Assembly: GCA_964620905.1 (NCBI GenBank)
Contig: CAZUKA010000001.1
Span: 519,646-583,645 of the forward strand
Direction of reading: 5' to 3'
DNA length: 64,000 nucleotides
Source: an uncultured Gammaproteobacteria bacterium
Lineage (GTDB): Bacteria > Patescibacteriota > Patescibacteriia > S139-126
Under the pieces are notes generated by a model. The model was not told the origin of the DNA, searched no databases, and worked only from the letters and a program-made list of their open reading frames with translations. Below are positions 3,455 through 60,347 of this stretch, one piece after another; positions within the stretch are counted from its first letter, which is position 1; the number at the start of each line of letters is the position of its first letter. The translations under genes were made by a program, and so were the position numbers.

Positions 3455-4933
3455 CTATTTTTTCAAAATCCTTACTATTCCTTTATTAGCATCAACCTCT
3501 ACTCTATCACCATCTTTCAATACTTGAGTGGCAATTTTTGTGCCGATAATGCAGGGTTTATTCATTTCCCTAGATACGATTGAGGCGTGAGAAGTTATAC
3601 CTCCCTCGTTGGTTACAAAAGCTAATGCTACTTCCATCAAAGGCACAAAATCAACAGAAGTCATAGGCGCCACCAAAATATCTCCTTGTTTGAATTTACT
3701 AAAATCTTTTTTATTTATTATTACTTTTACACTACCTAAAACTTTACCTGGGTTGGCAATCGTACCTTGTAGAAACCTAGTTGATTTAACTTTATTTTTT
3801 TTAATATATAATTTATTAATTTCTCTAATAAACGGTTTTAATTCTGACTCATTTAATAAATGGTATCTTGTGTTATTATTAGCAGCAATAACACCTCGCC
3901 AGATATTGGTTGTATATTCCAATACACTATCATCATTATCATAATAAAGATGACCAATCTCGTCCGGAGTCAGTTTCAACAACAATTTCCAATCTTCTAA
4001 ACCATAATCTTTGGCTATATGATGATATAAATAACGCAAAGACAAACTAGCCCGACTAAAAATATTTTTTCGGTATTCATTTAAATAAGTGCCTATTTGT
4101 AAGGCTTTGGCTTGTATAGATATTTCTTGATTATCTATATCTCTCAATAACCTTTTTCTTTTAATTAATTTCTGTCTATGAGACTTGATTAAATCATCAA
4201 TCTGATGAGCACAATCATGATGTAAAACCTGCTTTAATTGATTTATAATATCTTTTATAAACCAAGGATCTTCATTAAAATTAACTGGAATAACTTGGTA
4301 CATATTTAAATGCTTCCTTATCATTGAATTAAATTTTTTATTATTTTCTAATTGATTTATTTTTAGTCTATTCTGCTGTATATATTTACCTAGTCTTAGA
4401 ATAGATAATTGAGAATTAAATAAAGGTGTGTGTTGGTTTGGGTAAGTTATATTTCCTATCAATAAATCTATTTCACTGATCGATTTTTGTTGGTATAAAT
4501 TCTTTAAATTTTTATAAATTTTTTCATGTATTCGTCTACCTATGGCTGTTGTCAAATATAAACCTGGGGTTAAATGCTTATAAGCTTCCACAAAACTAAA
4601 ATAAGAATCCTTACTAAAATCTTTTTGTAAAACTTTACTAGCTGCCAATAGATTAGCACCATGCTTATAATAAATCTTTATTAATCTATTGATCCATTTT
4701 TGTGAAGAACAATTTTTTTCTATCTGTTTATTGTAATTTTGAGTATCTAAAACATGATCAAATATGCTACCTTCTTTACCTTTTTTATTTATAAAAACTG
4801 TCCTTCTTGCTAATATGTTAAATTTTTTTAAATAAACTTCATCAATATCAGCAACAACATCCAATACAGAATGAAAAAATGAAACATTCCTAGTAACTGA
4901 TATATTCCAATTAGATTTTTTAAATTTGATCAT
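3455..4933 (-). CDS. PEP-utilising-enzyme mobile-domain protein (PpsA-like paralogue). K/N-rich N-terminal region.
   Basis: The C-terminal ~80 aa carry the phosphohistidine swivel-domain signature GGITSHASIVSREMNKPCIIG. The last ~40 aa are nearly identical to the neighbouring paralogue. Confidence 0.65.
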   Translation of the reverse strand: MIKFKKSNWNISVTRNVSFFHSVLDVVADIDEVYLKKFNILARRTVFINKKGKEGSIFDHVLDTQNYNKQIEKNCSSQKWINRLIKIYYKHGANLLAASKVLQKDFSKDSYFSFVEAYKHLTPGLYLTTAIGRRIHEKIYKNLKNLYQQKSISEIDLLIGNITYPNQHTPLFNSQLSILRLGKYIQQNRLKINQLENNKKFNSMIRKHLNMYQVIPVNFNEDPWFIKDIINQLKQVLHHDCAHQIDDLIKSHRQKLIKRKRLLRDIDNQEISIQAKALQIGTYLNEYRKNIFSRASLSLRYLYHHIAKDYGLEDWKLLLKLTPDEIGHLYYDNDDSVLEYTTNIWRGVIAANNNTRYHLLNESELKPFIREINKLYIKKNKVKSTRFLQGTIANPGKVLGSVKVIINKKDFSKFKQGDILVAPMTSVDFVPLMEVALAFVTNEGGITSHASIVSREMNKPCIIGTKIATQVLKDGDRVEVDANKGIVRILKK

Positions 4934-4941
4934 TTATTTTA

Positions 4942-6414
4942 TTATTTCTTTAAAATCCTCACTACTCCTTTATTAGCATCGACTTCCACCAAATCGCCAT
5001 CCTTTAAAACCTGGGTGGCGATTTTTGTCCCAATGATACAGGGTTTTTTCATTTCCCTCGAAACAATGGCTGCGTGACATAATATACCTCCTTCATCGGT
5101 TATAAAACTTGATGCTTTTTCCATAGCTGGAACAAAGTCAGGTGTAGTCATACTGGTTACTAAAATATTTCCTTTTTTTACCTTTTTTAAATCTTTTGTA
5201 GTATTTACAATCCGAGCTATTCCTTTGACTTTTCCTAGATAAGCAGTTGTCCCTATAATAATCTCAGTTTTGTTGATTATTTCTCTTTCTTTAAATTTAT
5301 TTACTGCTAACTGTCCACTATAAATTTTTAGTTTCCCTTTTTTTAATATTAAAACGCTATTTAAAATTCTTTTTTTAATAATATTTTTTGCCTGAAGTAT
5401 TGAAATTTTATTATTTAATAATAAATTAATTTCTATTGGTGTCAGGTATAAAAACTTTTTTGCTTTAATATTAAATTTTTTTTCCAGATCAATAAACAAT
5501 GGCCATACTTTATACAAAGAAATAAACAATACATCTAATCGATAAGTCCTTAAATAAACAAATTCTCTGGTAATTTCAATCAATTTTATTTCAGCACTGT
5601 TTAATTGCAATTTTCTAATTGCTTTTTTATATTTTAATTCTGTTTGCTTTTCAGAGATGATGATGTCATTCTTTTCTTGTTGACCATCTCTTTTTATTTG
5701 TTTAGATAATCTGACAATCAAATCTTTTTGCGACCAAAAATTACCTTTAAAGTTATGGTCGCCAAGCCATGCCCATCTGTTTAAATGGCTGTTTATTAAA
5801 TTTGATAAGTCAGATTTATTTTTACCAAGAATATTGTATAATTTGAATTCTTTTTTAAATTTTTTATTATTTTTAATTTTTTGTGCCAAATTTAAAAATT
5901 CAATTTTTTCTTGTTGAACTGCACTACGTTTTTTTGCAGAGGTAAATAAAAGATAAACTTCTTGATACTTATTATGATTCTTTTTAAAATCAATTTTGGA
6001 TGAAACTATCTCATTGATTTTATTAGTTAAATATTTTTCTATGACTAAAGGCAAGTGTAGGTATGCCATGATTTTGTATAATCCCGACAAATAAATATCT
6101 AACTGTTGACCAATATCTTGGTTAATTAATTTTGTTTTGGAAAAATTGTCACTAAGTAAAATAAAATTATAAATATCCTGATAGCACTTATCAATAATTT
6201 TTTTAAAATAATTTGGATCTTTTTCTAACTTTTTGTTCAACCTTTTTCCCAATAATTCATAGGCATTGGTTATAAAATTGTCTCCATTTACAATTTTATA
6301 ATCAACAATTGTATAATCAATACCTATCTTATTATAAATTCTAGATCCACCCAACAATTTTGTGGCATCCATAAAAATTGAATTATTTCTTGATAATGTT
6401 TTTTGCCATTTCAT
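4942..6414 (-). CDS. PEP-utilising-enzyme mobile-domain protein, tandem paralogue of 3455-4933.
   Basis: C-terminal GGILCHAAIVSREMKKPCIIGTKIATQVLKDGDLVEVDANKGVVRILKK. The N-terminal ~400 aa are lysine-rich and divergent. Confidence 0.65.
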   Translation of the reverse strand: MKWQKTLSRNNSIFMDATKLLGGSRIYNKIGIDYTIVDYKIVNGDNFITNAYELLGKRLNKKLEKDPNYFKKIIDKCYQDIYNFILLSDNFSKTKLINQDIGQQLDIYLSGLYKIMAYLHLPLVIEKYLTNKINEIVSSKIDFKKNHNKYQEVYLLFTSAKKRSAVQQEKIEFLNLAQKIKNNKKFKKEFKLYNILGKNKSDLSNLINSHLNRWAWLGDHNFKGNFWSQKDLIVRLSKQIKRDGQQEKNDIIISEKQTELKYKKAIRKLQLNSAEIKLIEITREFVYLRTYRLDVLFISLYKVWPLFIDLEKKFNIKAKKFLYLTPIEINLLLNNKISILQAKNIIKKRILNSVLILKKGKLKIYSGQLAVNKFKEREIINKTEIIIGTTAYLGKVKGIARIVNTTKDLKKVKKGNILVTSMTTPDFVPAMEKASSFITDEGGILCHAAIVSREMKKPCIIGTKIATQVLKDGDLVEVDANKGVVRILKK

Positions 6415-7621: not shown

Positions 7622-7885
7622 AAATTAATGTTAATTATTATAGTATATTGAGTATGCGCGTATTTTTTATAAAAAGCAATGATTAATTCTACTACATATG
7701 TTGACGGTTTTATATAAAAATAGTAGCATATTTATATTGTTCATTTATTATATTATTCCGCAGGTTTCTTCAGTCGGTAGAGGTCAGGTTGGACTGGATG
7801 TCCAAACTGACGGCTGTGTCAGCCAGTTGCTCACTGATATGAAGTTGCCTCGCGGTAATTTGTTCTTTGCTTATTTTAATATTAT

Positions 7886-7961
7886 TCCGCGGTAGCTCAG
7901 TCGGTAGAGCAACTGGCTGTTAACCAGTGGGTCGTCGGTTCGAGTCCGACCCGCGGAGCCA
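7886..7961 (+). tRNA. tRNA-Asn (GTT), CCA encoded.
   Basis: 7-bp acceptor tccgcgg/ccgcgga. D-loop agctcagtcggtagagc. Anticodon stem actgg/ccagt with loop ctGTTaa. T-arm ggttcgagtcc. Confidence 0.9.
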
Positions 7962-9560
7962 TATGGGATGAACGGACGCAAAACGTCCGTTTTTCTCTTT
8001 ATTCACGGGCTGAACCAGATGTTCGAAAATCTTATTTGGGTCTATTTTCTCTCCTATCAGTTCTCCCACGTGGTCAAAGATGATCTTGAACGCTTTGTGA
8101 TACGAAACCTGGGCGATTTTGCCGTTTAACGTGGCGTTCGAAAATACGAGCGACAGTAAAAGTCTTTTATCGTCCACCATCTCCTCCGTGTCACGGTTGA
8201 TGTAAATTCTCCATGCCTTTTTGGCCACCTGCAAAACCGTGACGCCCATTTCGTAATATTTCAGGTTGGCGTCCTTGTGCTTATTCAGCGTATCGAGTAT
8301 CTGTTCCTGCTCGACTTTGTATTGCTCGAATTTCTTTTTATAAAAGTCCTCGCTGATTTTGTCGTCGATCTTGTCGTCATAGAGCTTATCCAGCCTTTGC
8401 GTGGCTACTTCATAGCGGCGGTTAAGCTCGCCGGTGGCTTTATTGCGGAATTCTATCTCCTCGCTATGGCTTTCTTTCAAAGCTTCTTGCACCCAGTTGA
8501 GCATATTCTCTACGGCTTGCTCGTTTTTCGGGTTGAGCGAGTTGATTTTCTCAAGCATCTGTACGTCCACCGCTTCCTGCCGCACAAATTCGCGTTTGGT
8601 GCAGTTTTTATAATGATTGCAATGGCCGTACCAGTGACCTCGCTGTATCTCCCAAGTGATCCGGCCTTTGCATTCATCGCACCGGAAGACGTTTTTAAAG
8701 AGCGGATTGTGCTTGAAGTATCTTGGCGTGCCGTTTGTATGCATGATTTCCTGGCACCGGTCGAATAATTCTTTCTTGATCAAGGGTTCGTGTCCGGCTT
8801 TGGTTACTTTGCCATCCCAACGGTTCATGCCGTAATAAAACGGATCGCCCAGAAGCTGGTGGACTCTTGAGTGGCTCACTTTGTTGCCTCCCCGGGACCG
8901 CAATCCTTCCTCGTAGATGACATCGGCCAGCTTCTTGGTCGAGTAGCGGTTCGTGGCATACAGATCAAACATCCGTTTGACGAGCGGCGCTTTATCCGGA
9001 TCAAGCACGTGGATTTTGTGTCCCTTCTCGCCGATGGTTTTATATCCGAGCGGCGGCTTGGCCGGAAGCCATCCTTGAGAGAGTTTTTCCTTTTGACCTT
9101 TCTTTACGTTTTCGGAAAGAAGCCGGATGTAATACTCGGCCGTAGCCACTTTGACGCGCCACATAAACCATTCGTGCGATTTGGAGTCTTTGTGAAGCGT
9201 GCAGTTTTCTTTTACCAGATGGATTTTGTGATCGTCGCTCTCCAATATCCAATTATCGATCACCGGCACATCGGCAAAGTTTCTGGTCAGCCGATCGGTG
9301 GTTTCCACGAACACGGTGCTGATCTTAGCTTTGCTTACGAACGCCATCATTTCGTGGAAGATTTTGCGCTGAACCTTACCGGCGGCCGACTCTTGGATAG
9401 CAAAAACCTTCATGAGCTCGTAGCCGTTGCGGTCGGCATAATCACGAAGGAGTTTTTCCTGGGCTGGAAGCGAGTATCCGGTATCCTCCTGATCCTTGGA
9501 TGAGACACGGGCATATCCTACGGCTTTCGGCGGTTGATTTTCATTCATTGTCATAGTCAT
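7920..9560 (-). CDS. Large serine recombinase (serine integrase).
   Basis: N-terminal resolvase-type catalytic motif VGYARVSSKDQ. Central recombinase domain. C-terminal Cys-rich zinc ribbon (CDECKG...HCNHYKNC). The annotated C-terminus reads through the tRNA-Asn 3' half, so the true stop may differ. Confidence 0.85.
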   Translation of the reverse strand: MTMTMNENQPPKAVGYARVSSKDQEDTGYSLPAQEKLLRDYADRNGYELMKVFAIQESAAGKVQRKIFHEMMAFVSKAKISTVFVETTDRLTRNFADVPVIDNWILESDDHKIHLVKENCTLHKDSKSHEWFMWRVKVATAEYYIRLLSENVKKGQKEKLSQGWLPAKPPLGYKTIGEKGHKIHVLDPDKAPLVKRMFDLYATNRYSTKKLADVIYEEGLRSRGGNKVSHSRVHQLLGDPFYYGMNRWDGKVTKAGHEPLIKKELFDRCQEIMHTNGTPRYFKHNPLFKNVFRCDECKGRITWEIQRGHWYGHCNHYKNCTKREFVRQEAVDVQMLEKINSLNPKNEQAVENMLNWVQEALKESHSEEIEFRNKATGELNRRYEVATQRLDKLYDDKIDDKISEDFYKKKFEQYKVEQEQILDTLNKHKDANLKYYEMGVTVLQVAKKAWRIYINRDTEEMVDDKRLLLSLVFSNATLNGKIAQVSYHKAFKIIFDHVGELIGEKIDPNKIFEHLVQPVNKEKNGRFASVHPIWLRGSDSNRRPTG

Positions 9561-10438: not shown

Positions 10439-10706
10439 ATGGCACTAAAAGCTTCCGGCCGCTCGTGATGTCCTCGACGTAGAAGCGCATCAAGGCATCG
10501 TAAAAGCCAAGCAGGTTGAAAGCGATATCGTGCAAATCGCGGTCATCGACCTCCTGGCCGAAGTCTTTTTTGAGGATAGCGCGGAGTTTTTCCAGCGTTT
10601 CCGGTTGTAAGTTCACAGGTCTTAGTCCTCGGCATAAATCCGTACTTTGACCTGCTTCAACTGGTTGAAAAACGCTTGAGGCTCGACTTGAAGTTCGCGG
10701 CTCCAA
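10416..10706 (-). CDS. Hypothetical protein. Overlaps the next ORF in another frame.
   Basis: 96 aa ORF. It overlaps 10622-10864 by about 85 nt, so it may be a frameshifted single gene or have a later start. Confidence 0.3.
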   Translation of the reverse strand: MEPRTSSRASSVFQPVEAGQSTDLCRGLRPVNLQPETLEKLRAILKKDFGQEVDDRDLHDIAFNLLGFYDALMRFYVEDITSGRKLLVPYDDEPAK

Positions 10707-10864
10707 TATCGCTTCACCAGAGAATCCAGCTCATGGCTCTTGCCGAAGCAGAAGAGCACCTTGTGCGGATTTCCCCGATCCACGACCTCAAGAGAATCAG
10801 GAATAAATAATAAAAGCACCGCGACCAATGCCAGATCGGCGGTTTTGTAATAATTGTTTTCCAT
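10622..10864 (-). CDS. Hypothetical protein.
   Basis: 80 aa ORF in the GC-rich island. Confidence 0.3.
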   Translation of the reverse strand: MENNYYKTADLALVAVLLLFIPDSLEVVDRGNPHKVLFCFGKSHELDSLVKRYWSRELQVEPQAFFNQLKQVKVRIYAED

Positions 10865-11713: not shown

Positions 11714-11742
11714 TTGACAATGAAAAATGAAAGCGGTAAAAT
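11714..11742 (+). promoter_or_regulatory. Candidate sigma-70 promoter (TTGACA-17-TAAAAT) for the xis-mod-res operon.
   Basis: ttgacaatgaaaaatgaaagcggtaaaat lies in the divergent intergenic region, about 25 nt upstream of the 11767 start. Confidence 0.45.
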
Positions 11743-11766: not shown

Positions 11767-11958
11767 ATGAGTGACATCGAAAAACTTTTCACCATTGAGG
11801 AAGTCGCCGAGATTTTAAGAGTCCATACCCGGACCGTTACCCGGTATATTGAGGCTGGCCGACTTAAGGCGTCAAAGCTTGGGGTCTGGCGGATCAAGCA
11901 GTCTGATTTAGACGCATTTTTGGAAGAAACGAGTAACGTTAAGAAAAAGAAGAAATAA
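11767..11958 (+). CDS. Excisionase-family (MerR-like) HTH DNA-binding protein.
   Basis: LFTIEEVAEILRVHTRTVTRYIEAGRLKASKLGVWRIKQSDLDAFLEE matches the excisionase-family HTH pattern. It lies 2 nt upstream of mod. Confidence 0.7.
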   Translation: MSDIEKLFTIEEVAEILRVHTRTVTRYIEAGRLKASKLGVWRIKQSDLDAFLEETSNVKKKKK

Positions 11959-11960
11959 AT

Positions 11961-13493
11961 ATGGCATCACTAAATTGGATTGGAAAAGAGGCAGTCTCAA
12001 ACCACGATAAGGAGGTGCCTTTTAAGTTGCTCAAAAAAGTTAAGACAGCTTCAGTTGGCGACAACTCTCAAAATCTAATAATCCACGGAGATAATCTTGA
12101 GGCTCTTAAGGCACTCATGCCTCATTATGTTGGGAAAATAAAATGTATCTATATCGATCCTCCGTACAACACCGGAAATGAAGGTTGGGTATATAACGAT
12201 AAAGTAAACTCGCCGAAAATTAAGCAGTGGCTTGGTAAAGTTGTCGGCCGAGAATCCGAAGACCTAACTCGCCATGATAAATGGTTATGCATGATGTATC
12301 CGCGTCTCAAGCTCATGCGAGACTTACTTGCAGATAACGGATTTATTTTTGTCTCCGTAGATGACAATGAACACTGCAATCTTCGTGGTGCAATGGACGA
12401 GATCTTTCTTGAGAAAAATCATATTACGACTATTGCGTGGCAAAGAAAAAAAGAGAGTTCAAATGATAGCAGAAACATCTCTGTGAAAGCAGAATATATT
12501 GTGGTATACGCACGGTCAGAAATTGCCCAGTTAAACTTACTTTCTTTAAGTGAATCCTATATTGAGACCGCTTATAAATTACCCACCAAAGAATTCCCTC
12601 ATGGGAAGTGGAGGCCTGTTCCTATAGCCACGACAAAAGGACATAAAAGTGGTGGATATACTTATGAGATTGTCACGCCTTCCGGTAAAAAGCATAAAAG
12701 AGAATGGGCTTATCCCGAGGAAAGTTATAAGCGTCTCTTAGGTGAAGGAAAAATATATTTCGGAAAAAGCGGTGATGGGGTTCCTCAGCGTGTTATTTAC
12801 GCGCACGAAAGCACGGGCATACCAGCAAGCAATATTTGGACGGATGTAGCGACAAACAAAGAAGGAAAAAATGAGATAGTAAATTTATTTGGAGATGGTA
12901 CTTTCGAAACGCCAAAGCCCGTAGGGTTAATTAGAAGAATTTTGGAACTCGCAACGGAAAAAGATTCGTTAATCTTAGATTCCTTTGCTGGCTCTGGCAC
13001 AACCGGTCATGCGGTGTTGGATTTGAATAAGGAAGATAACGGAACTCGTAAATTTATTATGGTTGAAATGGAAGACAAAGTTGCAAAGGACATTACCGCT
13101 GAACGGGTTAAGAGAGCGATTAAGAAATACGATTATAAGGATGGCTTCGAGTATTGCGAATTAGATAAGCCGCTCTTTAATGAGCACGGCCAGATTGAGG
13201 AAACATGTGATTTCCGGCAATTCGCAACGTATATTTACTTTACTGAAACGCAAACCAACATTGATCCAAAACTGATTAATGAGAATTATATCGGAGAACT
13301 CGGTACGACTGAGTACTACCTGCTTTATCAAGGAAAGAATAAGAACGATCTCAATAAATCTTTCCTGAAGAAAATCAGAAAAACCGATAATAAGAAGGTC
13401 ATTTATGCGGACCGGTGCTTGATCGACGACGAAACGCTTGCTAAGCATAACGTCGTGTTCAAGCAGATACCTTATGAAGTAAAAGTCTATTAA
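11961..13493 (+). CDS. mod: Type III restriction-modification methyltransferase (Mod), beta-class N6A/N4C MTase.
   Basis: Motif IV IYIDPPYNTGNEGW precedes motif I LDSFAGSGTTGHAV, which is the beta-class order. Res follows 4 nt downstream. Confidence 0.85.
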   Translation: MASLNWIGKEAVSNHDKEVPFKLLKKVKTASVGDNSQNLIIHGDNLEALKALMPHYVGKIKCIYIDPPYNTGNEGWVYNDKVNSPKIKQWLGKVVGRESEDLTRHDKWLCMMYPRLKLMRDLLADNGFIFVSVDDNEHCNLRGAMDEIFLEKNHITTIAWQRKKESSNDSRNISVKAEYIVVYARSEIAQLNLLSLSESYIETAYKLPTKEFPHGKWRPVPIATTKGHKSGGYTYEIVTPSGKKHKREWAYPEESYKRLLGEGKIYFGKSGDGVPQRVIYAHESTGIPASNIWTDVATNKEGKNEIVNLFGDGTFETPKPVGLIRRILELATEKDSLILDSFAGSGTTGHAVLDLNKEDNGTRKFIMVEMEDKVAKDITAERVKRAIKKYDYKDGFEYCELDKPLFNEHGQIEETCDFRQFATYIYFTETQTNIDPKLINENYIGELGTTEYYLLYQGKNKNDLNKSFLKKIRKTDNKKVIYADRCLIDDETLAKHNVVFKQIPYEVKVY

Positions 13494-13497
13494 TACT

Positions 13498-15753
13498 ATG
13501 GAACTAAAACGCTACCAAAAAAATACATTAGAGACGCTCGAGCAATTCTTGAAGGAATTGCATAAAGCTGGCTTGAAGTACGCCTTCATGGGCATTACGG
13601 AAAAGCCGTACAGAGCTGAAGCTTTTGGCGAAGTTCCATTTGTCTGCATTAAAATTCCTACCGGGGGTGGCAAGACATTGGTTGGCTGTCATGCCGTAGA
13701 AAAAATAATGAGCGGTGCCCTACAGAACAAATTGGATCGTGGCATAGTTCTTTGGTTTACACCGTCCGAAGCCATCAAGACACAAACACTTAAGAAATTT
13801 AAAGATCGCAAAGATTGGCATCGCAGGGCGTTGGACGAAGCCTTTGATAATAACGTTAAGGTGTTTTCAAACGAGGAGGCTCTTACCATTCGCAAAGAAG
13901 ACGTAAACGGAAACCTTTGTATTATTGTTGCCAGCCTTGAGGCATTCAGAAAAGAAAAAACACTCCAAAATAAATATAAAGTCTATCAGGAGAATGGTGC
14001 GCTCTTAGATCACTTTGAGCATATCGAGGAATCAGATTATCTCGAACGAGATAGTGAAGGAACCGTTGTTAATTCTCTTGCTAATGTCGTCCGGTTAAGC
14101 AACCCACTTGTGGTTATCGATGAGGGTCATAAAACGGCTACTAAACTTTCGATTGATTTCCTCAAAGACCTTAATCCCAGCTTTATTATTGAATATACCG
14201 CTACTCCACGGGATAACAGCAACATTCTCGTTGAGGTTCATGCTTCCGAGCTGAAAGAAGAACAAATGGTGAAGATCCCCATCGTTCTCGAGAGCGCCGC
14301 GCAGTGGCAGAACGCCATTATCCGCGGTGTTGAAAAGCGCATTGAGCTAGAGAAGGATGCAAAGAAAATTAAAGGCGAGTATATACGGCCTATTGCATTG
14401 CTTCAGGCACAGCCAAAAGATGAAAATATCACTGTTGAGAAAATAAAAGAATTTTTACTCGAACGGAAGATACCTGCTGAACAGATCGCAATAAAAATCT
14501 CAGGAAAAAACGAACTCGAGAGAGTAGACCTCTTCGACAGAAAATGTCCGATACGTTACATCATTACAGTAAATGCCCTAGCCGAAGGATGGGATTGTTC
14601 CTTCGCTTATATTCTTGTTTCGGTTGCGAACCTTGGCTCAAAAATTGCTGTTGAGCAGATCATCGGGCGCATCATTCGTTTACCGTACGCCAAGAAAAAA
14701 GCCAATGAAGACTTTAATAGAAGTTATGTCTTTGCTTCTGCTAGGAACTTTAATGAGGCAGCAAGCCAAATTATTTCAGGCCTTGAGACTAACGGCTACA
14801 GTAAGGCAGATATCATAGGTGCGGATAAAAAGGACGCTTCGTATGAGTTGGAAACCAAAAAGGCGGTTTCTGACACGCTCAAAATGCCGATGGTGGCTTT
14901 GGATGGTGAACTGTTGTCATTTGAAGACTTGATTGGTAGTGATTTTGAGTTGTCAAAGCAGGATTACAAATTTGAGTTCCAGATCCATTACGATAACGAC
15001 GGCCGAGCGATCATTGATATCAAAGAGGATGAATGGATGCGCGGCAAGCAGATGTTTTTGAAGCTAAGTTATTCAGACAAAAACTTCACTAAGAATGAGT
15101 TGGTGCAATGGCTTGATAAAAAGCTACGTTTCCCGCTTTTAGAAAAATCAGACAAGGTTGGTTTTCTCGATAAAGCTATTGAGCACCAGCTTAAAACTCA
15201 TACACTTTCCGAACTTTCAGTAAATCGCTACGTCTTAGCTGATCGCTTGAGCGAGGTTATCAACGGCATCCTTGAGGAATATGCCAAGAAAAAATTTGAT
15301 GCTCTGTTGCAGAAAAAGAAAATCGTCACTGAACAGTTCGAGGCATTTCCGGCTGTTATTACTCTCAAGCGACCAGAGCCGAAGGAGTTTAACAAATGCT
15401 ATTACGAGAAAATCGATAAATTGAATGGTGAAGAGCGTGAGTTCGTTGATCGTCTCGATCTCGACACCTTACCCAATGTTAAATATTGGGTTCGTAGCCG
15501 CGAGAAAACCGATCCGTTTTATATTCAGGGTTGGAAGCGAGGAAAGTTTTATCCGGACTTCATTGCGGTCACTAAGAAGGGCGCAATCGTAGCTCTTGAA
15601 TGGAAGGGTGCGGACCGGATAAGCAACGAAGATACGGCATACAAAGTTGAGATCGGTGGAATGTGGTCGAAGCTTGGCAAAGGAAAACTATACTTTTTCT
15701 TGGTGCATACGGGGAATGTTGAAGAAGTGCTGAAGGAAGTTAAAGAATTGTAA
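13498..15753 (+). CDS. res: Type III restriction endonuclease Res subunit (SF2 helicase-like).
   Basis: Walker A KIPTGGGKT. Motif II VVIDEGHK. Helicase C-terminal motifs. 751 aa, immediately downstream of mod. Confidence 0.85.
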   Translation: MELKRYQKNTLETLEQFLKELHKAGLKYAFMGITEKPYRAEAFGEVPFVCIKIPTGGGKTLVGCHAVEKIMSGALQNKLDRGIVLWFTPSEAIKTQTLKKFKDRKDWHRRALDEAFDNNVKVFSNEEALTIRKEDVNGNLCIIVASLEAFRKEKTLQNKYKVYQENGALLDHFEHIEESDYLERDSEGTVVNSLANVVRLSNPLVVIDEGHKTATKLSIDFLKDLNPSFIIEYTATPRDNSNILVEVHASELKEEQMVKIPIVLESAAQWQNAIIRGVEKRIELEKDAKKIKGEYIRPIALLQAQPKDENITVEKIKEFLLERKIPAEQIAIKISGKNELERVDLFDRKCPIRYIITVNALAEGWDCSFAYILVSVANLGSKIAVEQIIGRIIRLPYAKKKANEDFNRSYVFASARNFNEAASQIISGLETNGYSKADIIGADKKDASYELETKKAVSDTLKMPMVALDGELLSFEDLIGSDFELSKQDYKFEFQIHYDNDGRAIIDIKEDEWMRGKQMFLKLSYSDKNFTKNELVQWLDKKLRFPLLEKSDKVGFLDKAIEHQLKTHTLSELSVNRYVLADRLSEVINGILEEYAKKKFDALLQKKKIVTEQFEAFPAVITLKRPEPKEFNKCYYEKIDKLNGEEREFVDRLDLDTLPNVKYWVRSREKTDPFYIQGWKRGKFYPDFIAVTKKGAIVALEWKGADRISNEDTAYKVEIGGMWSKLGKGKLYFFLVHTGNVEEVLKEVKEL

Positions 15754-15765
15754 ATCCTGTAATAA

Positions 15766-16680
15766 ATGGCTAATGAGAATCTTGCAACAAAAGGACCTTC
15801 TCCAAGTGACCTGATAGAACAAAATTCTAAGCAGATCTTTGAGTCAAAGTTACCGCTGACAGGTAGAATATTTATCTGGTATCCAGACAAAAATCCTAAT
15901 ACTGACGGTCACATTGAATTTCTAGGAGAACATGGTTCTACAACTGTTAAACTGTTTTTCCAATTGAAAAGCAGTGAGCAGGATATTGCATATCATGATT
16001 GCGATCGTTCCTTTTTAAATTATTGTTATCAATCTGCTGAACCAACTTTTATAGTTTTTGTTAATATTCCCCAAAAAAAAGTTTACTGGGAGCACATTAC
16101 TCAGTCTTACATTGAGGATGTGCTTGGCGTAAAAAATTTGACCGATTTTAATCAACAAACTAAAAGGATAAGTTTTTCAGAAGAAAAACTCATAGATAAT
16201 AATGCACAAAAACTTATTGAGGAATGTAGGAAACATTATCAAGATAAGTCAAAAGTAGAGGCAGAAGTACAAAGCAATATTTCCGCAGAGCAAAAGCAGA
16301 TCGATATTTTAACCGATGGGGCGCAAAAAGAAGAGGGTGTTGATTACGACATAATAAGAAAAAAGTTCGCCTCGTTGCTTGGTAACATGACCGATAAGAT
16401 GATGTTATATTTTGCTCTGGTTCATATTCTCAAGCCATTTTATTTAGATCAAAGAGGAGAGAAAAAACGCAGAATACTCCTGAGATTCTTGCAAATAACT
16501 GATTCTCAAGAACGATTTCTAATAGAAAGCCTGATAAATGCGAATTTGCTAGGGAGAGTTGGCGAGTTAATTTTTCCAATACGCAAAGAAGAAGCAGTTT
16601 CCGTTATTGAACGTTACATTGATAATGGCCAAGTTGATCTAGCAGAAATAACGCAATTATTCTCTCAAAATGAAGATTAA
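15766..16680 (+). CDS. Uncharacterised protein (304 aa). The N-terminal domain may be restriction-endonuclease-like. Candidate defence-associated.
   Basis: Lies 12 nt after the res stop. Its stop overlaps the next gene's start by 11 nt. No NTPase or MTase motifs. The N-terminal region GRIFIWYPDKNPNTDGHIEFLGEHG...KLFFQLK is reminiscent of DUF4365-type domains found in defence islands, but the assignment is uncertain. Confidence 0.5.
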   Translation: MANENLATKGPSPSDLIEQNSKQIFESKLPLTGRIFIWYPDKNPNTDGHIEFLGEHGSTTVKLFFQLKSSEQDIAYHDCDRSFLNYCYQSAEPTFIVFVNIPQKKVYWEHITQSYIEDVLGVKNLTDFNQQTKRISFSEEKLIDNNAQKLIEECRKHYQDKSKVEAEVQSNISAEQKQIDILTDGAQKEEGVDYDIIRKKFASLLGNMTDKMMLYFALVHILKPFYLDQRGEKKRRILLRFLQITDSQERFLIESLINANLLGRVGELIFPIRKEEAVSVIERYIDNGQVDLAEITQLFSQNED

Positions 16681-19108
16681 ACCAGACAAAAACTTAATAG
16701 CGACATACATGTCGCTCAGTAGCAAGAAGGCCGATGAATATCTGGCTAATTTAGCGAATCAAATAAAAACAGAAATTCAGAACTCATCAGATTATGATGA
16801 AATTTTTGAGTATTTGGAATTACTTGGAGAATTTGTTTATAAAGCACCTAACGAAACTACTCGGATCGTAAGCCACATTGTGGATAAAAAACCCAATCCT
16901 CCAGCCACTCACAAATCTCCATTCGGTGAGTTTGAAGGAAAGTCATACAAGGACTTGATATTGAAGTGTATCGAACTACTTGGTCATATCAGATATATTG
17001 CTCCGGATGATGTCTTGAAATTAATTGCGCAGCTTTCGCTATCAGAAGACCAAAATATAAAAAGCAAAACTCTAGAAGCCTTAAAAAAGTTTGCTCAATA
17101 CGATTTTAATGTCCTTACCAAGAGTAAAATTGGTTATGGAGCACAGAGAAAGGCTCTTGATTTCATCCTTGCATGGACCCGTGATGAGCAATTTCAACAT
17201 ATTGATTTTGTTGAAAAAGTATTAAGAGAGTTGCTTAGCGCTTCTGTAGAAGGAACCACGTCAGGATTAAACGATGAAGCACAGTATACAATAACGATGC
17301 ATTTTGGTGCTGTCTCGCCAACAGATTTTTTGAAGAAATTGCGCCGTGAGGTAATAGATCTTGTATATGAGTTATATTCAACAACCAAAGATTCAAAATT
17401 AAAATTAAAACTTGTAGAGATTCTTGATGAAACAACACGGACTCCCTCAAATGTAGCTTATGGAGATGATGTAGCTCAAATGATTGTTGATGATCTTAAA
17501 TATCTAACTGGAATTTATCGTAAAATCATCTTCCCAGAAACCGGAAAGATGAATGATCATTTAGGCATCATTGCCACTGTTGAGGAGCGACTCTATTGGA
17601 TTAACAGAAGCGAGAAAAGGCGTGCTGAAGAATCGGAACAACTACGTCAAGATATTTTGAATGACGAACTGTATCATCTTTTCAGGTTACTTGTTGGGGA
17701 CCCTGTTACATATCAGGAACAGGAAGGTTGGAATACGGCTGAAAAAAATAGAGCCGAAGAGACTGAGCAAGTCATAAGCTCAATTGAGGAAACTGAAATT
17801 GAAAAATGGCTTGAAAAATTTAATAAAATTGCTTCTCAGCATGTGCTTGTTGATGAGTGGAAATTTAACCCCTTTAAAGGACTTTTAAGAAAGCTTGCTG
17901 AAACAAAACCTATTGTAGCTGAGAAAATCTTAGAAAGTGTGTTCGTAAGCAATGCCCCTCTCAAGCATTTTACTAGCAGCTTCTTGGATGGTTTTAGAAT
18001 GGGTTCCCATTTCAAACAATGGGATAAATTTATATCGAAAATCATTGAGAATAAAGATACTTCTTTGATAAGTGGGATAGTTTTCTCTCTTAATCTTCCC
18101 GCTGATGCAGACTTACAGAAGCTTATGAGAGAAGAGGATATTGATTTACTTAAAAAAATAGCAAATCGAGTTGACCAATTTTCATTCCTTGATCAGGAAG
18201 ATGACCGGGTCCTGTTATATGCCCTCTTTAATACTTTGTCTCGTAATTTCCAGCGCGCCCCTCAAAGCATTGAGCCGCTAATTGTAGAGCAGATAAAGAA
18301 ACACCCTAAATATTTGGGTATGTTTTTCTCTGAGTTATCAATGATTACTCATAGGAAGTGGATCGATATCAAAAATCTACAACCCGAAACCATTGCTTTT
18401 CTTGAGGAGAAAATTGTTGAGCTTCCTGATGTTGATTGGCACGTTCAAGAGCTGTTGTTAGAAATCGGACAACAATATGGTCTTGGCAAAGTACTGGACG
18501 TGTTTATGAATAGAATTAAAAAAGATGCAGAGAAAGATAAAAAGAAGCCACGACGTATTGGTGACGATAGGTATGAAGTGATTCCTTACCATTTCAACCC
18601 AGACTTAAGTGCGTTTATTACTGAGCACGAAGACTACATAAAAATTGCTGGCAGTTGGGTTGCTGAAATGACTACCGACTGGAGTGGCTACAATTGGCAC
18701 GTTAGTCATTTTCTACAAAGGAATGGTAAAGGGTTTGATGAAATCTTGGCCTCTCTTATAGAGAAAGGTGATGACGAGAGCTTATTGAAAGCAGCTCGTG
18801 CTATGCATTCTATTGAAGGAACTAATTTTGATTTGTGTATTGAAATAGTACGCCAAACTGATAATAAAAGAGTTTTAAGTCAGGTCGACAGCAATATGTA
18901 CACAACTGGTGTCGTGTCAGGTGAGTATGGACTAGCGGAAGCCTATGAGGCTAAAGCAAAAGCACTAGAAAAATATAAAAATGATGAAAGTAAACGAGTT
19001 ATGAAATTTGCGGAAAGAATGATAGTAAGTTTTCTTGATAGTGCAAAAAGAGAACGCCAGCGCACGGACGAAGAAAAACAGCTAAGAAAAATTGAATTTG
19101 AGGAATAA
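16670..19108 (+). CDS. Uncharacterised large alpha-helical protein (812 aa), partner of 15766-16680.
   Basis: Translationally coupled to the upstream gene. Helical-repeat-like composition. No Walker A (only GEFEGKS, which is one residue short). No recognisable catalytic motif. Confidence 0.5.
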   Translation: MKIKPDKNLIATYMSLSSKKADEYLANLANQIKTEIQNSSDYDEIFEYLELLGEFVYKAPNETTRIVSHIVDKKPNPPATHKSPFGEFEGKSYKDLILKCIELLGHIRYIAPDDVLKLIAQLSLSEDQNIKSKTLEALKKFAQYDFNVLTKSKIGYGAQRKALDFILAWTRDEQFQHIDFVEKVLRELLSASVEGTTSGLNDEAQYTITMHFGAVSPTDFLKKLRREVIDLVYELYSTTKDSKLKLKLVEILDETTRTPSNVAYGDDVAQMIVDDLKYLTGIYRKIIFPETGKMNDHLGIIATVEERLYWINRSEKRRAEESEQLRQDILNDELYHLFRLLVGDPVTYQEQEGWNTAEKNRAEETEQVISSIEETEIEKWLEKFNKIASQHVLVDEWKFNPFKGLLRKLAETKPIVAEKILESVFVSNAPLKHFTSSFLDGFRMGSHFKQWDKFISKIIENKDTSLISGIVFSLNLPADADLQKLMREEDIDLLKKIANRVDQFSFLDQEDDRVLLYALFNTLSRNFQRAPQSIEPLIVEQIKKHPKYLGMFFSELSMITHRKWIDIKNLQPETIAFLEEKIVELPDVDWHVQELLLEIGQQYGLGKVLDVFMNRIKKDAEKDKKKPRRIGDDRYEVIPYHFNPDLSAFITEHEDYIKIAGSWVAEMTTDWSGYNWHVSHFLQRNGKGFDEILASLIEKGDDESLLKAARAMHSIEGTNFDLCIEIVRQTDNKRVLSQVDSNMYTTGVVSGEYGLAEAYEAKAKALEKYKNDESKRVMKFAERMIVSFLDSAKRERQRTDEEKQLRKIEFEE

Positions 19109-19447: not shown

Positions 19448-19924
19448 ATGAAAATCAACAACACATTCAAACTCATCATCGCAATAGTTGTTTCTGAGCT
19501 GGCAGGTATCATCGGTTCGGTGTTTACGACTCCGTCTATTGATGGCTGGTACTCGACGCTTGTTAGGCCAGCACTTAATCCTCCGGCATGGGTATTCGGA
19601 CCCGTCTGGACGACCCTCTTTGCCCTTATGGGCATTGCGGCGTTTCTTGTTTGGAAAAAAGGATTGGATCGCAGGGATGTAAAAATCGCTCTCGGCATAT
19701 TTCTCGGCCAGCTAGTGCTCAATACACTCTGGTCAATCATCTTTTTCGGCCTGCATTCTCCGGGCGGCGCGTTTATTGAGATCATATTCCTCTGGCTTGC
19801 CATTCTTACTACGATCATCGCTTTTGCACGTATCTCGAAACCGGCCGCCTGGCTTCTTGTGCCATATATCCTCTGGGTCAGCTTTGCCGCGTATCTTAAT
19901 TACTCTATTTGGATGTTGAATTAA
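19448..19924 (+). CDS. tspO: TspO/MBR family tryptophan-rich sensory (translocator) protein.
   Basis: 158 aa with five transmembrane segments. WYSTLVRPALNPPAWVFGPVWTTLFALMGIAAFLVW and Trp-rich helices are characteristic of TspO. Confidence 0.8.
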   Translation: MKINNTFKLIIAIVVSELAGIIGSVFTTPSIDGWYSTLVRPALNPPAWVFGPVWTTLFALMGIAAFLVWKKGLDRRDVKIALGIFLGQLVLNTLWSIIFFGLHSPGGAFIEIIFLWLAILTTIIAFARISKPAAWLLVPYILWVSFAAYLNYSIWMLN

Positions 19925-19928
19925 ACAT

Positions 19929-20396
19929 ATGGAACACTACAAACACACTCAAATTGGTTATCTGATGATCTTTATAACGCTCATGGTGCTGGTCTTTTTC
20001 GCATGGCTTCAGATTACGGCTAGAGCCGAGCCGCCCTCTGTTGATTCAGGTGCAAATTTTGCTATGACAGCCGTCATGGTACTGGTAGTGCTTATTCTTG
20101 CATCTTTCGGCTGGCTTACCGTGAGAGTTGACGAACAACATGTGGCAATCAAGTTTGGCTGGGGAATATTCCGCAAAAAATTCTCAACAAGTGAGATTGC
20201 TTCGGTCGCGCAGGTAAAAAATCATTGGTATTACGGATGGGGCATCCGATTGTGGTTTTGGCCGAAAATGTGGATTTATAATGTCTCCGGCTTTGATGCC
20301 ATAGAGCTGACTATGAAAAACGGAAAAATCTATCGCATCGGCACTGACGAGACAGAAAAACTTGAGTCCGCAATCAAGCGAGTCATATTTGCTTAA
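19929..20396 (+). CDS. Membrane protein with two N-terminal transmembrane helices and a PH-like soluble domain, hypothetical.
   Basis: 155 aa. The C-terminal region resembles bacterial PH (YdbS/T-like) domains. Last gene of the island operon. Confidence 0.45.
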   Translation: MEHYKHTQIGYLMIFITLMVLVFFAWLQITARAEPPSVDSGANFAMTAVMVLVVLILASFGWLTVRVDEQHVAIKFGWGIFRKKFSTSEIASVAQVKNHWYYGWGIRLWFWPKMWIYNVSGFDAIELTMKNGKIYRIGTDETEKLESAIKRVIFA

Positions 20397-20723
20397 CTTT
20401 TCAGAAATTAAGCAAATCGTCCCAGGCTCTCAAATTTCGTCCAATGGCTTGGTGAGTCTGCAACATGGGTCAAACGTCTAGCCCGGGGACAAAGCTCGCC
20501 CCCGGGGCAAACAAACGGCAATTCCGGTGGGTTCTAAACGTGTTCGTATTTGGCGAGTAAACCTTTCATCTGGTCGAGCATAACCGTCGGGTATTTGTAC
20601 TCTTTGATCCAGTCAAACGCTCGAAAGTCACGGAGAAGGGCGAGCCATGAAAATTGCGTCACCATTAGGTGGCGCTATTTTCATATCTGGGAGGATGAGA
20701 AGTTTATCCCGCCAACGGCGGGA

Positions 20724-20744
20724 AGTCCGACCCGCGGAGCCATA
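20724..20744 (+). repeat. attR-side direct repeat, a copy of the tRNA-Asn 3' end.
   Basis: The 21 nt agtccgacccgcggagccata are identical to 7943-7963. A hairpin cccgccaacggcggg lies just upstream. Confidence 0.7.
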
Positions 20745-22016
20745 ACAAAGAACACCACATTTATTGGTGTTTTTTGTATAGGGCAAGTGAAGGTTATAAT
20801 CAAACTTTATAATTTTGTGTATAATTATACATAGACCTTAAATTTAATAATTAAGTTGTATAATTATGTGGGAATTATTTATTGATATTTTAGCTAGTTT
20901 ATGCTCATTTGTGCTCTCAATATCTATTTTTATTATTTTGCCGATCGCATTATATAGAGGTATTAAGAAAAAGAATTGGAAATTATTAAGAATTGTTTTA
21001 TTCACGATCATTTCATCTGCCGGTATTTATACTTTACTCATCTTTTCTATATTACCATCATTAATAAATGAGCCTATTAAAACCCAAAGTAGTGTAGATA
21101 ATTTGTTACCTATGTACGGTGGAGAAAATCGAATAAAAACATCTTCTCAAATAGAAGCAGACGAAAAATTTATATCAGAAATGATTGACATTGCAGGAAG
21201 TAGAGAGGAAGCGGCAGAGGGTATCGTAAACGGAGCTTGGGAATTTTTTGAGCAGGGTGATATTGATATAGCGATGAAAAGATTTAATCAAGCTTGGCTA
21301 CTAGACCCACAGAATATAGAAGCTTATAAGGGCTTCGCCGCAATTTTAGAAAAGAGAGGTCAGCCTGAAGAAGCACGAAAGATGCTACAAAAAGCTCAAG
21401 ACGTTAGTACTGCAAAGTAAAATATAATATATATTAATAAAAACTATTGTTATATGGAGAGTAGGGTAGACTAGAAAGTATATATTACACCACACCGCTG
21501 GTTCTAATTTTCTCCACATTATGAAATATACCTAATGAAGGTAGTTAAATTTTTTAGTTCCTAGCGACCGTGTTGTTTAGTAATAGTTTGTCAGTTATAA
21601 TATAGAATACTCCACTAAGGGGTATTTTTGTGAAAATGTTTTTTTATTGACAAAACAGTAAAAGTGTAACGTTTTTTAAATAACTGCCCATTATATAAAT
21701 GTATAATTGTGTTAATAATTAACAATAAAAATATGGATAAAAAAATGTATATAAATAGCACCATAGGTCTTGCTATTTTGACCATATTTATCCCAAGAGT
21801 TCTTTTATAGTAACTTTTTCTCAATCTGTTACAATTACTAATATATACACATCCTATCCAGACATTCTAAACTAATATAATTTATTTCAATTATCACCTA
21901 AAGGCTTAACTATTTGTTAAGCCTTTTTAATTATTTAAGTTATATTTATTTAACTCTTTCTTACTAATTTTTATGGATAAATATATCCTAGTAAGTTCGG
22001 TAAGTATGTAATCTGT
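20745..22016. mobile_element. Degenerate second islet (remnant element or satellite) of about 1.3 kb.
   Basis: Bounded by 45-nt direct repeats (20736-20780 and 22017-22061) that consist of the tRNA 3' tail plus a terminator-like hairpin. It contains a single TPR gene and no recombinase. Confidence 0.45.
20866..21420 (+). CDS. Membrane-anchored TPR-repeat protein.
   Basis: Two N-terminal transmembrane helices. C-terminal TPR-like repeats (AWEFFEQGDIDIAMKRFNQAWLLDPQNIEAYKGFAAILEKRGQPEEA). Confidence 0.55.
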   Translation: MWELFIDILASLCSFVLSISIFIILPIALYRGIKKKNWKLLRIVLFTIISSAGIYTLLIFSILPSLINEPIKTQSSVDNLLPMYGGENRIKTSSQIEADEKFISEMIDIAGSREEAAEGIVNGAWEFFEQGDIDIAMKRFNQAWLLDPQNIEAYKGFAAILEKRGQPEEARKMLQKAQDVSTAK

Positions 22017-22061
22017 GGAGCCATACAAAAACCACCAATCTTTATTGGTGTTTTTTGTATA
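22017..22061 (+). repeat. Direct repeat: tRNA-Asn 3' tail plus terminator hairpin. Likely the original host sequence downstream of the tRNA.
   Basis: ggagccatacaaaaaccaccaatctttattggtgttttttgtata matches 20736-20780 with a few mismatches. It contains the hairpin caccaat/attggtg followed by a T-run. Confidence 0.55.
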
Positions 22062-59900: not shown

Positions 59901-60347
59901 CCGGATAATACTGGTAGTAAAGAAAACACCTGCACTTCGTATCAACTGTGACACTACCACTCTTTCAATACCGTTGACAATAAAAGTACCCCGATCAGTC
60001 ATCAATGGAAAATCACCCAAATAAATCTCTTGTTCTTTGGTTTCACCAGTCCGTTTATTGATCAATCTGACTTGAGTACGTAAAGGAGCTTCATAAGTAA
60101 CATTTTTTTCTTTGGCTGTTTGTTCGTCAAATTTTGGATCATCTAAATAATAATCTGTAAAATAAAGCTCCAAATCACGTCCAATAAAATCTTTTATTGG
60201 GTTTATCTCGGAAAAGAGTTCTTTTAAACCTTCATCAAAAAACCATTGATAAGACTGTTTTTGCACTTCAATCAAATCAGGCAGTTTTAGGACCTGTTTA
60301 TATTTAGTGAAATATTTACGCTCCAGCGAAGTAGTTTTTACAGACAT
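56967..60347 (-). CDS. rpoB: DNA-directed RNA polymerase beta subunit (RpoB).
   Basis: 1126 aa. Conserved beta-subunit blocks ([32 protein letters not shown]). Immediately upstream of rpoC. Confidence 0.95.

Follow-up and report, generated by a model that had tools for sequence, protein, structure and literature searches.

A mobile gene pair joining a DUF4365 nuclease to a HEAT-repeat partner: a candidate two-component abortive-infection module in a Patescibacteria genome

An overlapping gene pair: nuclease, putative adaptor and solenoid

Here we analyze two overlapping genes, which we call A and B, in a genome of the Patescibacteria (Candidate Phyla Radiation, CPR). The host was assigned to this group through RpoB of the window, whose named relatives all belong to Patescibacteria/Parcubacteria; the contig measures 716,806 bp. 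They lie in a window of 64,000 nt, the whole stretch of DNA that was analyzed (GenBank assembly GCA_964620905.1, contig CAZUKA010000001.1, positions 519,646 to 583,645), on an island of ~12.8 kb that is a serine-recombinase element inserted at tRNA-Asn. Gene A starts 12 nt past the stop codon (15753) of res, which together with mod encodes a Type III restriction-modification (R-M) system; the coordinates of all features are collected in Table 1. A previous reading of the window from its letters alone (the sequence-only reading) had described the two open reading frames (ORFs) with an 11-nt overlap, placed them directly 3' of res on a mobile island, and seen no canonical ATPase, methylase or HNH motif in either product. 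Each of these statements held: the island is flanked by 21-nt attachment (att) repeats and encodes a serine recombinase, a motif scan detected no Walker A or Walker B motif in A or B, and neither protein has a methylase or HNH match in Pfam. That both are real genes is indicated by their close homologues, 46 for A and, by a word-based search, 98 for B.

The overlap depends on where B begins. Automatic gene callers place the start at Met14, which yields a 799-aa protein (P0001) and no overlap with A. However, B homologues keep the N-terminal peptide MKIKxDKNLIxTY, many of them carry Leu rather than Met at position 14 and thus cannot start there, and the B part of fused relatives begins at profile position 1-5. 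Together, these observations favor the upstream start, and with it a real A/B overlap. Among loci with an unfused B, the upstream gene on the same strand ends between -26 and +7 nt from the B start in 40 of 44. The four exceptions are L040, in which the gene is split, likely by an assembly break, L005, with a gap of +32 nt, and L014 and L016, whose B start is ambiguous because the longest-ORF rule and the gene caller disagree. Overlap or abutment is therefore a conserved property of the pair, and the translational coupling postulated earlier would follow from that overlap. A and B are a two-gene module, with conserved gene coupling and with fusions among its relatives.

Protein A is a nuclease of the DUF4365/DREN branch of the PD-(D/E)xK family, as seen from its Pfam match, its motif and its fold alike. 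Residues 36-151 match Pfam DUF4365 (PF14280) at E = 4e-11, scoring 43.6 bits where the cut-off is 24.3, and the nuclease part, but no other, matches the PADLOC model Aga_REase (E = 1.8e-5; positions 28-137 of a 429-position model). The AlphaFold2 model of A (predicted local distance difference test, pLDDT, 73.6) consists of a PD-(D/E)xK-type N-terminal domain, with secondary structures in the order alpha-beta-beta-beta-alpha-beta as in PD-(D/E)xK folds, a disordered linker (161-191), and C-terminal helices with a beta hairpin. When this model was compared with the PDB using Foldseek, the top 15 hits were nuclease-bearing (DREN-APAZ) chains of SPARDA complexes (E down to 2e-7), in alignments of ~150 columns that cover the nuclease domain. 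In 32 A homologues, no variation was seen at D47, E51 or Q66, and conservation at K68 and E18 is at least 90%. Residues Q66-x-K68 correspond to Q62/K64 of TmuRE, a DUF4365 protein in which these two positions were predicted by alignment to form the active site and were mutated to obtain an inactive control (PMC10810196). The sequence-only reading had suggested that the N-terminal block of A could be a degenerate PD-(D/E)xK or DUF4365-like domain; the Pfam match and the SPARDA-like fold bear out DUF4365, whereas the conserved motif speaks against degeneration. Given that D47, E51, Q66 and K68 are conserved and match the TmuRE residues, the nuclease is probably active.

The C-terminal domain of A, for which Foldseek returned weak MarR-like winged-helix matches, recurs in proteins with other effector domains. 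A hidden Markov model (HMM) of residues 195-304 matched the HNH-type partners of B at E = 1e-19 to 6e-27, as well as the 450-aa partner at L014, the fused protein of L036, and B proteins fused to TIR, NB-ARC or DUF4365 domains. In every matching protein, this domain is located immediately before the N-terminus of B. We propose that it serves as a docking adaptor, common to DUF4365, HNH, TIR, NB-ARC and unknown-domain effectors.

Protein B (94 kDa) is, according to its AlphaFold2 model, an all-alpha HEAT/ARM-like solenoid of stacked helical hairpins. The model, computed with 43 homologues in the input, is confident (pLDDT 89.4, predicted template-modeling score 0.77) and contains ~45 helices and two small beta hairpins, agreeing with the scaffold envisaged from the letters alone. 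Its matches in the PDB are generic HEAT-repeat proteins only. In sequence libraries (including PADLOC-DB v2 of 2023 and NCBIfam of June 2026), B of the window had no match in Pfam, PADLOC, NCBIfam, PHROGs or the PDB sequences, and the B part of relatives from Pseudomonas, Pelomonas, Legionella, Falkowbacteria, Ozemobacteraceae and Pseudorhodoferax had none in PADLOC, NCBIfam or Pfam. Among known defense systems, no PADLOC model was found for this constant subunit, either with B of the window or with six homologues from other lineages. The Legionella adelaidensis homologue is named "hypothetical protein" in RefSeq.

R225, R615 and G751 of B are invariant among 224 family members, and Q159, Y109, Y156 and Y335 are also counted with the invariant residues. 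In the same set, column entropy is lowest in residues 745-812, a block that opens with the TGVVSGEYG loop (745-753) and whose tail ends in RKIEFEE. Even relatives with no more than 20-29% identity, which come from Burkholderiales, Muribaculaceae, Mollicutes, Smithella and Rhizobium, retain this C-terminal block. A gene at 4486-6060 of locus L086, from a metagenome-assembled genome of Rhizobium sp., encodes a 524-aa protein in which a GrpB nucleotidyltransferase-fold domain is followed by the C-terminal part of B only, including a TGVVMGEYG block. Given this fusion, the C-terminal module of B may work on its own.

One constant partner and its interchangeable effectors

The B family is moderately large and widely scattered. 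A profile search of 1.84 billion representative proteins returned 1,214 B clusters at E <= 1e-3, of which 541 also passed E <= 1e-30, the ~1,200 clusters being counted at 50% identity. In a scan of one genome per species, we detected 79 B loci, in Patescibacteria, Saccharibacteria, Bdellovibrionales, DPANN archaea, Nitrospirae, Aminicenantes and many Proteobacteria, the last including Pseudomonas, Massilia, Legionella, Lysobacter and Pelomonas. B is also encoded on plasmids of Legionella, Pseudanabaena, Rhizobium and Sphingobium. This patchy spread over distant phyla and archaea fits horizontal transfer.

Partner genes and fusions show that B is combined with many different toxic domains. Where no upstream partner abuts B, the effector is fused to its N-terminus: extensions of 90-490 aa at this end occur in about half of the 150 best B profile matches, and among the 98 close homologues of B, some are ~1,000 aa long with a RelA_SpoT domain, and one has DUF4365. 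We grouped the partners and the N-terminal extensions by BLAST clustering, with Pfam run on representatives only. The resulting groups comprise DUF4365 (~15 unfused, several fused), HNH (7), PIN_12/DUF4935 (~27, mostly proteobacterial), RelA_SpoT (~18 fused, one unfused), TIR_2 (P0231, E = 1.7e-12, and P0280, assigned from sequence similarity), GrpB (L086) and an NB-ARC NTPase (P0224, E = 1.9e-10); the effectors of L014, L039 and L047 have no Pfam match. The pairs with PIN_12 include those of Pseudomonas graminis UASWS1507 (L051) and of a Legionella adelaidensis plasmid (L091), and L076 is an example of a RelA_SpoT-B fusion. The HNH partner matches PADLOC effector, ZorE and SAVED-HNH models, and the RelA_SpoT part matches the PADLOC defense candidate PDC-S33 and, in the PDB, small alarmone synthetases and a 373-aa RelA/SpoT-family chain. 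The effector domains of the B family are standard toxic outputs of known defense systems.

Two fused proteins have a more elaborate organization. P0224, a metagenomic protein of 1,274 aa, has an N-terminal extension of ~490 aa in which an NB-ARC/STAND NTPase is inserted after the N-terminal domain and is followed by the adaptor and then by B; in the other B-family members checked, no NTPase domain was found. P0224 is thus a possible link between the NTPase-less B family and proteins resembling nucleotide-binding leucine-rich repeat receptors (NLRs). On plasmid pC6.5d of Rhizobium rhizogenes (NZ_MK318989.1; L090, 3915-7847), a 1,310-aa protein joins RelA_SpoT, the B solenoid and a C-terminal poly-gamma-glutamate hydrolase. 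Its RefSeq name reflects the last domain only, and it adjoins VapBC, an integrase, IS256 and a SIR2 family gene.

Beyond A and B, no third gene is conserved on either side: ORFs downstream of B do not cluster, indicating that the module is autonomous. The neighborhood survey suggested in the sequence-only reading showed that the pair recurs in many genomes without R-M genes, which agrees better with "a new system in its own right" than with the other roles considered there. Among the 150 nearest neighbors at 55 loci (four nearest per locus), no Pfam family occurred more than three times; the recurring families were R-M parts and LexA/S24 domains, and HamA, SAD_SRA and IS66 were seen once each. 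Neighbors of defense type included R-M, HamA, SAD_SRA, Fic, VapBC and SIR2. A helix-turn-helix gene of the HTH_17 family was considered as a recurrent upstream regulator and rejected, as it is only sporadic (the window, L003 and L009, directly preceding the module in the latter two). At 21 further loci, serine recombinases homologous to that of the island are found no more than 10 kb from the module.

Three loci of Patescibacteria type (L004, L005 and L007) share one layout, in which a serine recombinase, a protein of ~500 aa, a small gene and a ParB_N-N6_N4 methylase are followed by the effector and B. In L004 and L005, a LexA/S24-like repressor precedes the effector and B, and the ~500-aa protein has a weak terminase-like match in L005 only. 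Their appearance is that of CPR prophages, satellites or integrative elements, with the module placed in the lysogeny region.

Proposed function and its alternatives

We consider it rather probable that A and B constitute a self-contained, mobile, two-component abortive-infection (anti-phage) module, in which a sensor or regulator is paired with a toxic effector. This reading is favored by the constant partner with swappable effectors, the split and fused forms, the mobile elements and the patchy spread, all of which are as in known immune systems. In the mechanism we envisage, A and B would be made in fixed proportion from their overlapping genes, and the winged-helix-like C-terminal domain of A would dock on the N-terminal end of B, as suggested by the shared adaptor and by fusions that join the C-terminus of A directly to residue 1-5 of B. 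While bound to B, the DUF4365 nuclease would be inactive. Infection may supply a cue, in the form of a phage protein or of an altered host component, whose binding to the solenoid would release or oligomerize the effector. The nuclease would then degrade DNA without sequence specificity, as expected by homology to the DUF4365 (DREN) domain in SPARDA, and both the infected cell and the phage would be stopped. In this scheme, B would act as a constant sensor or regulator subunit that lacks an NTPase, and A as one toxic output among many that can be exchanged. In the window, the module is cargo of the island and is probably co-transcribed with an independent Type III R-M, which would provide a second layer of defense.

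Several observations weigh against an abortive-infection role, or at least against parts of the scheme. B is acidic (isoelectric point 5.5), and the motif scan detected no recognizable ligand-binding motif in it. The 224 members show no hypervariable region, and conservation is fairly even along the length of B; a conserved ligand or a guarded host component fits this better than a receptor for a fast-evolving phage protein. The adaptor was matched only weakly in PIN_12 partners (hhalign probability 26%) and is absent from most RelA_SpoT fusions, in which the first 25-35 residues of B are replaced; for the unfused RelA_SpoT partner, the hhalign probability was 1%. The immediate neighbors are heterogeneous, with recognized defense genes being a minority of the 150 proteins at 55 loci. 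Links to phages are indirect, as B had no match in INPHARED and was found on 1 of 2.9 million IMG/VR contigs.

The sequence-only reading had coupled the pair to the Type III R-M system, with an accessory specificity module among the possible roles. In its general form, this explanation makes the pair an R-M accessory that contributes an extra nuclease or specificity factor, or that acts as a back-up upon inhibition of the R-M. The arrangement in the window invites it: A follows res closely on the same strand, probably in the same operon, no terminator-like site was scored in the res-A junction, and both systems are defense-type island cargo. In L006 and L017, mod-res is likewise directly upstream of an HNH-type pair. 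However, these two loci and the window are the only three of ~70 in which mod-res directly precedes the module, the mod and res of L006 and L017 are only 24-32% identical to those of the window, and most pairs have no R-M nearby, so the link is not conserved. The R-M is also complete on its own, since Res carries a PD...ExK nuclease motif at its extreme C-terminus (FYPDF...ALEWK) and needs no extra nuclease. TIR, toxic small alarmone synthetase (toxSAS) and PIN effectors make no sense as restriction subunits, and guanine-cytosine (GC) content differs between A-B (0.35-0.38) and mod-res (0.40-0.42). We thus rejected the coupling and regard an accessory role as highly improbable.

An explanation that deserves more weight, although we find it unlikely, is that of a toxin-antitoxin (TA) addiction module, in which A and its PIN, toxSAS, HNH and TIR counterparts would be the toxins, B would be a giant "hyperpromiscuous" antitoxin that neutralizes them, and the main role of the pair would be to stabilize the mobile element, not to sense phage. 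PIN, RelA_SpoT and HNH toxin domains are typical of TA systems, genes of A and B type overlap tightly, with a toxin-type domain next to a constant partner, and the module resides on islands, prophage-like elements and plasmids. In its use of one constant partner for many toxin folds, the module also recalls the Panacea/PanA antitoxin network (PMC10440598). Yet antitoxins of TA systems are small and labile, unlike B, a highly conserved solenoid of 812 aa that has no DNA-binding autoregulatory domain, and about half of the best-scoring B members are single-chain fusions, which rules out a logic of differential stability. Fusions to TIR and NB-ARC are typical of immunity proteins, and TA and defense roles are in any case compatible, as the fused toxSAS CapRel shows. 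The pair might instead serve the mobile element itself, in excision, replication, packaging or the exclusion of competing elements, in keeping with its frequent linkage to serine recombinases, ParB-methylases and LexA-like repressors, and to a weak terminase-like gene in CPR elements. This seems improbable to us, given that effectors of NADase type (TIR) and alarmone-synthetase type do not fit DNA processing and that many proteobacterial loci lack such element genes.

Considered as an abortive-infection module, the pair resembles several known systems without having the defining features of DSR2, SPARDA, Avs, CapRel or PanA. In design, the closest match, especially for fused B-family members, is DSR2: its N-terminal enzyme is attached to a large, spiral-shaped helical sensor that has no NTPase and that switches the enzyme on upon binding the phage tail tube (PMC11290490); however, the combination of an N-terminal SIR2 NADase with a sequence or fold match to the DSR2 helical region was not found here. 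SPARDA shares the nuclease family (DUF4365/DREN) and the QxK motif with A, and no other structure matches A better (E = 2e-7). Its DREN domain acts as a collateral DNase that sensing turns on, through filament assembly in the cases solved so far (PMC12205087; structure 9qcc). Unlike the SPARDA chains, A has no APAZ domain but a 110-aa winged-helix-like C-terminus, and the sensor is a HEAT solenoid rather than a guide-loaded prokaryotic Argonaute; neither the 10 proteins near the module nor the 25 commonest families among the 150 flanking proteins elsewhere include a Piwi or Argonaute protein. Avs and other NLR-like STAND proteins likewise have exchangeable effectors (nuclease, TIR and others) at the N-terminus and a sensor of helical repeats at the C-terminus, whereas A and B of the window lack Walker A/B motifs and any NTPase match in Pfam, P0224 being the exception in the family. 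RelA_SpoT-B fusions follow the logic of CapRel (PMC9712102), in which a toxSAS enzyme is held by a C-terminal domain, and PanA networks share the constant partner serving many toxin folds. In contrast to both, the regulatory part here consists of ~800 aa of HEAT repeats rather than a small domain, and the effector of the window is a DNase; module proteins also had no Pfam match to DUF4065 (Panacea).

We rate B as a new family of putative sensors that would work on a known principle. In the full-text literature, with subscription journals and supplementary tables outside coverage, we found no description of the A-B pairing; PANGU (10.64898/2026.04.06.716658) was examined and set aside as a different system, based on nucleoid-associated proteins. 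More tentatively, the B family may represent an unrecognized class of NTPase-independent immune receptor: a HEAT solenoid of ~800 aa that senses infection directly or guards a host component and that, through an adaptor or a fusion, controls at least six kinds of suicide effector (DNases, RNase-type PIN, toxSAS, GrpB and TIR among them), spread by serine-recombinase elements in CPR, DPANN and Proteobacteria. Were a defense function confirmed, this would add a sensor family that lacks the NTPase switch of NLR/Avs proteins yet swaps effectors in the same way, and that reaches lineages with few characterized defense systems, namely episymbiotic Patescibacteria/CPR and DPANN archaea. The shared adaptor would be a compact example of one sensor rewired to many outputs, and a nuclease activated on sensing could serve as a tool, as that of SPARDA has. 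The family is directly testable, since it is carried by cultured hosts, including Pseudomonas graminis, Massilia polaris, Legionella adelaidensis, L. rowbothamii, Lysobacter and Pelomonas.

The island and its other genes

Table 1 Features of the module, the island and the window (positions are those of the window)
Feature	Position	Strand	Description
attL	7943-7963	+	21-nt direct repeat AGTCCGACCCGCGGAGCCATA, in the 3' end of tRNA-Asn (7886-7961)
Large serine recombinase	7920-9560	-	Pfam Resolvase + Recombinase
Small DUF5659 protein	10622-10864	-	E = 1e-8; among uncharacterized minus-strand genes between the recombinase and the HTH_17 gene
Small HTH_17 (Xis/MerR-like) gene	11767-11958	+	Pfam, E = 1.6e-17; heads the same-strand row, outside the core module
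Type III mod	11961-13493	+	PADLOC MTase_III, E = 3e-166
Type III res	13498-15753	+	PADLOC REase_III, E = 5e-95
Gene A	15766-16680	+	304 aa; ATG start, TAA stop at 16678-16680
A, nuclease domain	15766-16245	+	Residues 1-160; E18, D47, E51, Q66-x-K68
A, C-terminal domain	16348-16677	+	Residues 195-304, ~110 aa; winged-helix-like, proposed adaptor docking on B
A/B overlap	16670-16680	+	11 nt; stop of A inside B if B starts at ATG 16670
Gene B	16670-19108	+	812 aa; ATG start
B, most conserved block	18902-19105	+	Residues 745-812; TGVVSGEYG loop, long terminal helix, tail RQRTDEEKQLRKIEFEE
TspO/MBR gene	19448-19924		Pfam, E = 7e-53; inside the island, downstream of B
attR	20724-20744	+	Perfect copy of the 21-nt repeat AGTCCGACCCGCGGAGCCATA
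RpoB	56967-60347	-	Named relatives 72-74% identical, only Patescibacteria/Parcubacteria

The Res protein of the island is short (751 aa). The PADLOC REase_III model covers its helicase half only (residues 2-432), and a weak similarity (E = 1e-10) links its C-terminal half to the BPTD_3080 restriction endonuclease family.

Co-transcription of the row formed by HTH_17, mod, res, A and B is plausible. The best promoter-like site (11714-11742, 11/12 matches) is located just upstream of the HTH_17 gene, the plus strand from mod to B contains a single terminator-like match, which is weak and falls within B (17304-17321), and the strongest on that strand (20656-20675) is near attR; the scan that produced these sites found no more of them than in shuffled sequence.

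GC content is raised over 8-21 kb of the window and varies along the island, with 0.44-0.49 at the recombinase and 0.42-0.44 near TspO, in addition to the values given above for mod-res and A-B. This mosaic suggests that the island was built from parts of different origin. The TspO/MBR gene and a neighboring gene for a 155-aa protein (19448-20396 region) are unusual cargo for a small defense-type island in a CPR genome; the 155-aa product is probably a membrane protein, with one weak haem-transporter match in Pfam.

Sequence at and around the tRNA-Asn site is partly repeated. The stretch that follows attR (20736-20780), composed of GGAGCCATA, a hairpin-like stretch and a T run, recurs ~1.3 kb downstream at 78% identity, with copies at 21591-21635 and 22017-22061, the in-between copy being 60% identical. 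These copies may have been left behind by earlier insertions into this att site of tRNA-Asn, which would make the region a tandem island array. On the other side of the island, ~130 nt upstream of the intact tRNA-Asn, lies a partial and diverged copy of the 5' part of this tRNA gene (7745-7790; TTATTATATTATTCCGC...TCAGTCGGTAGAGG).

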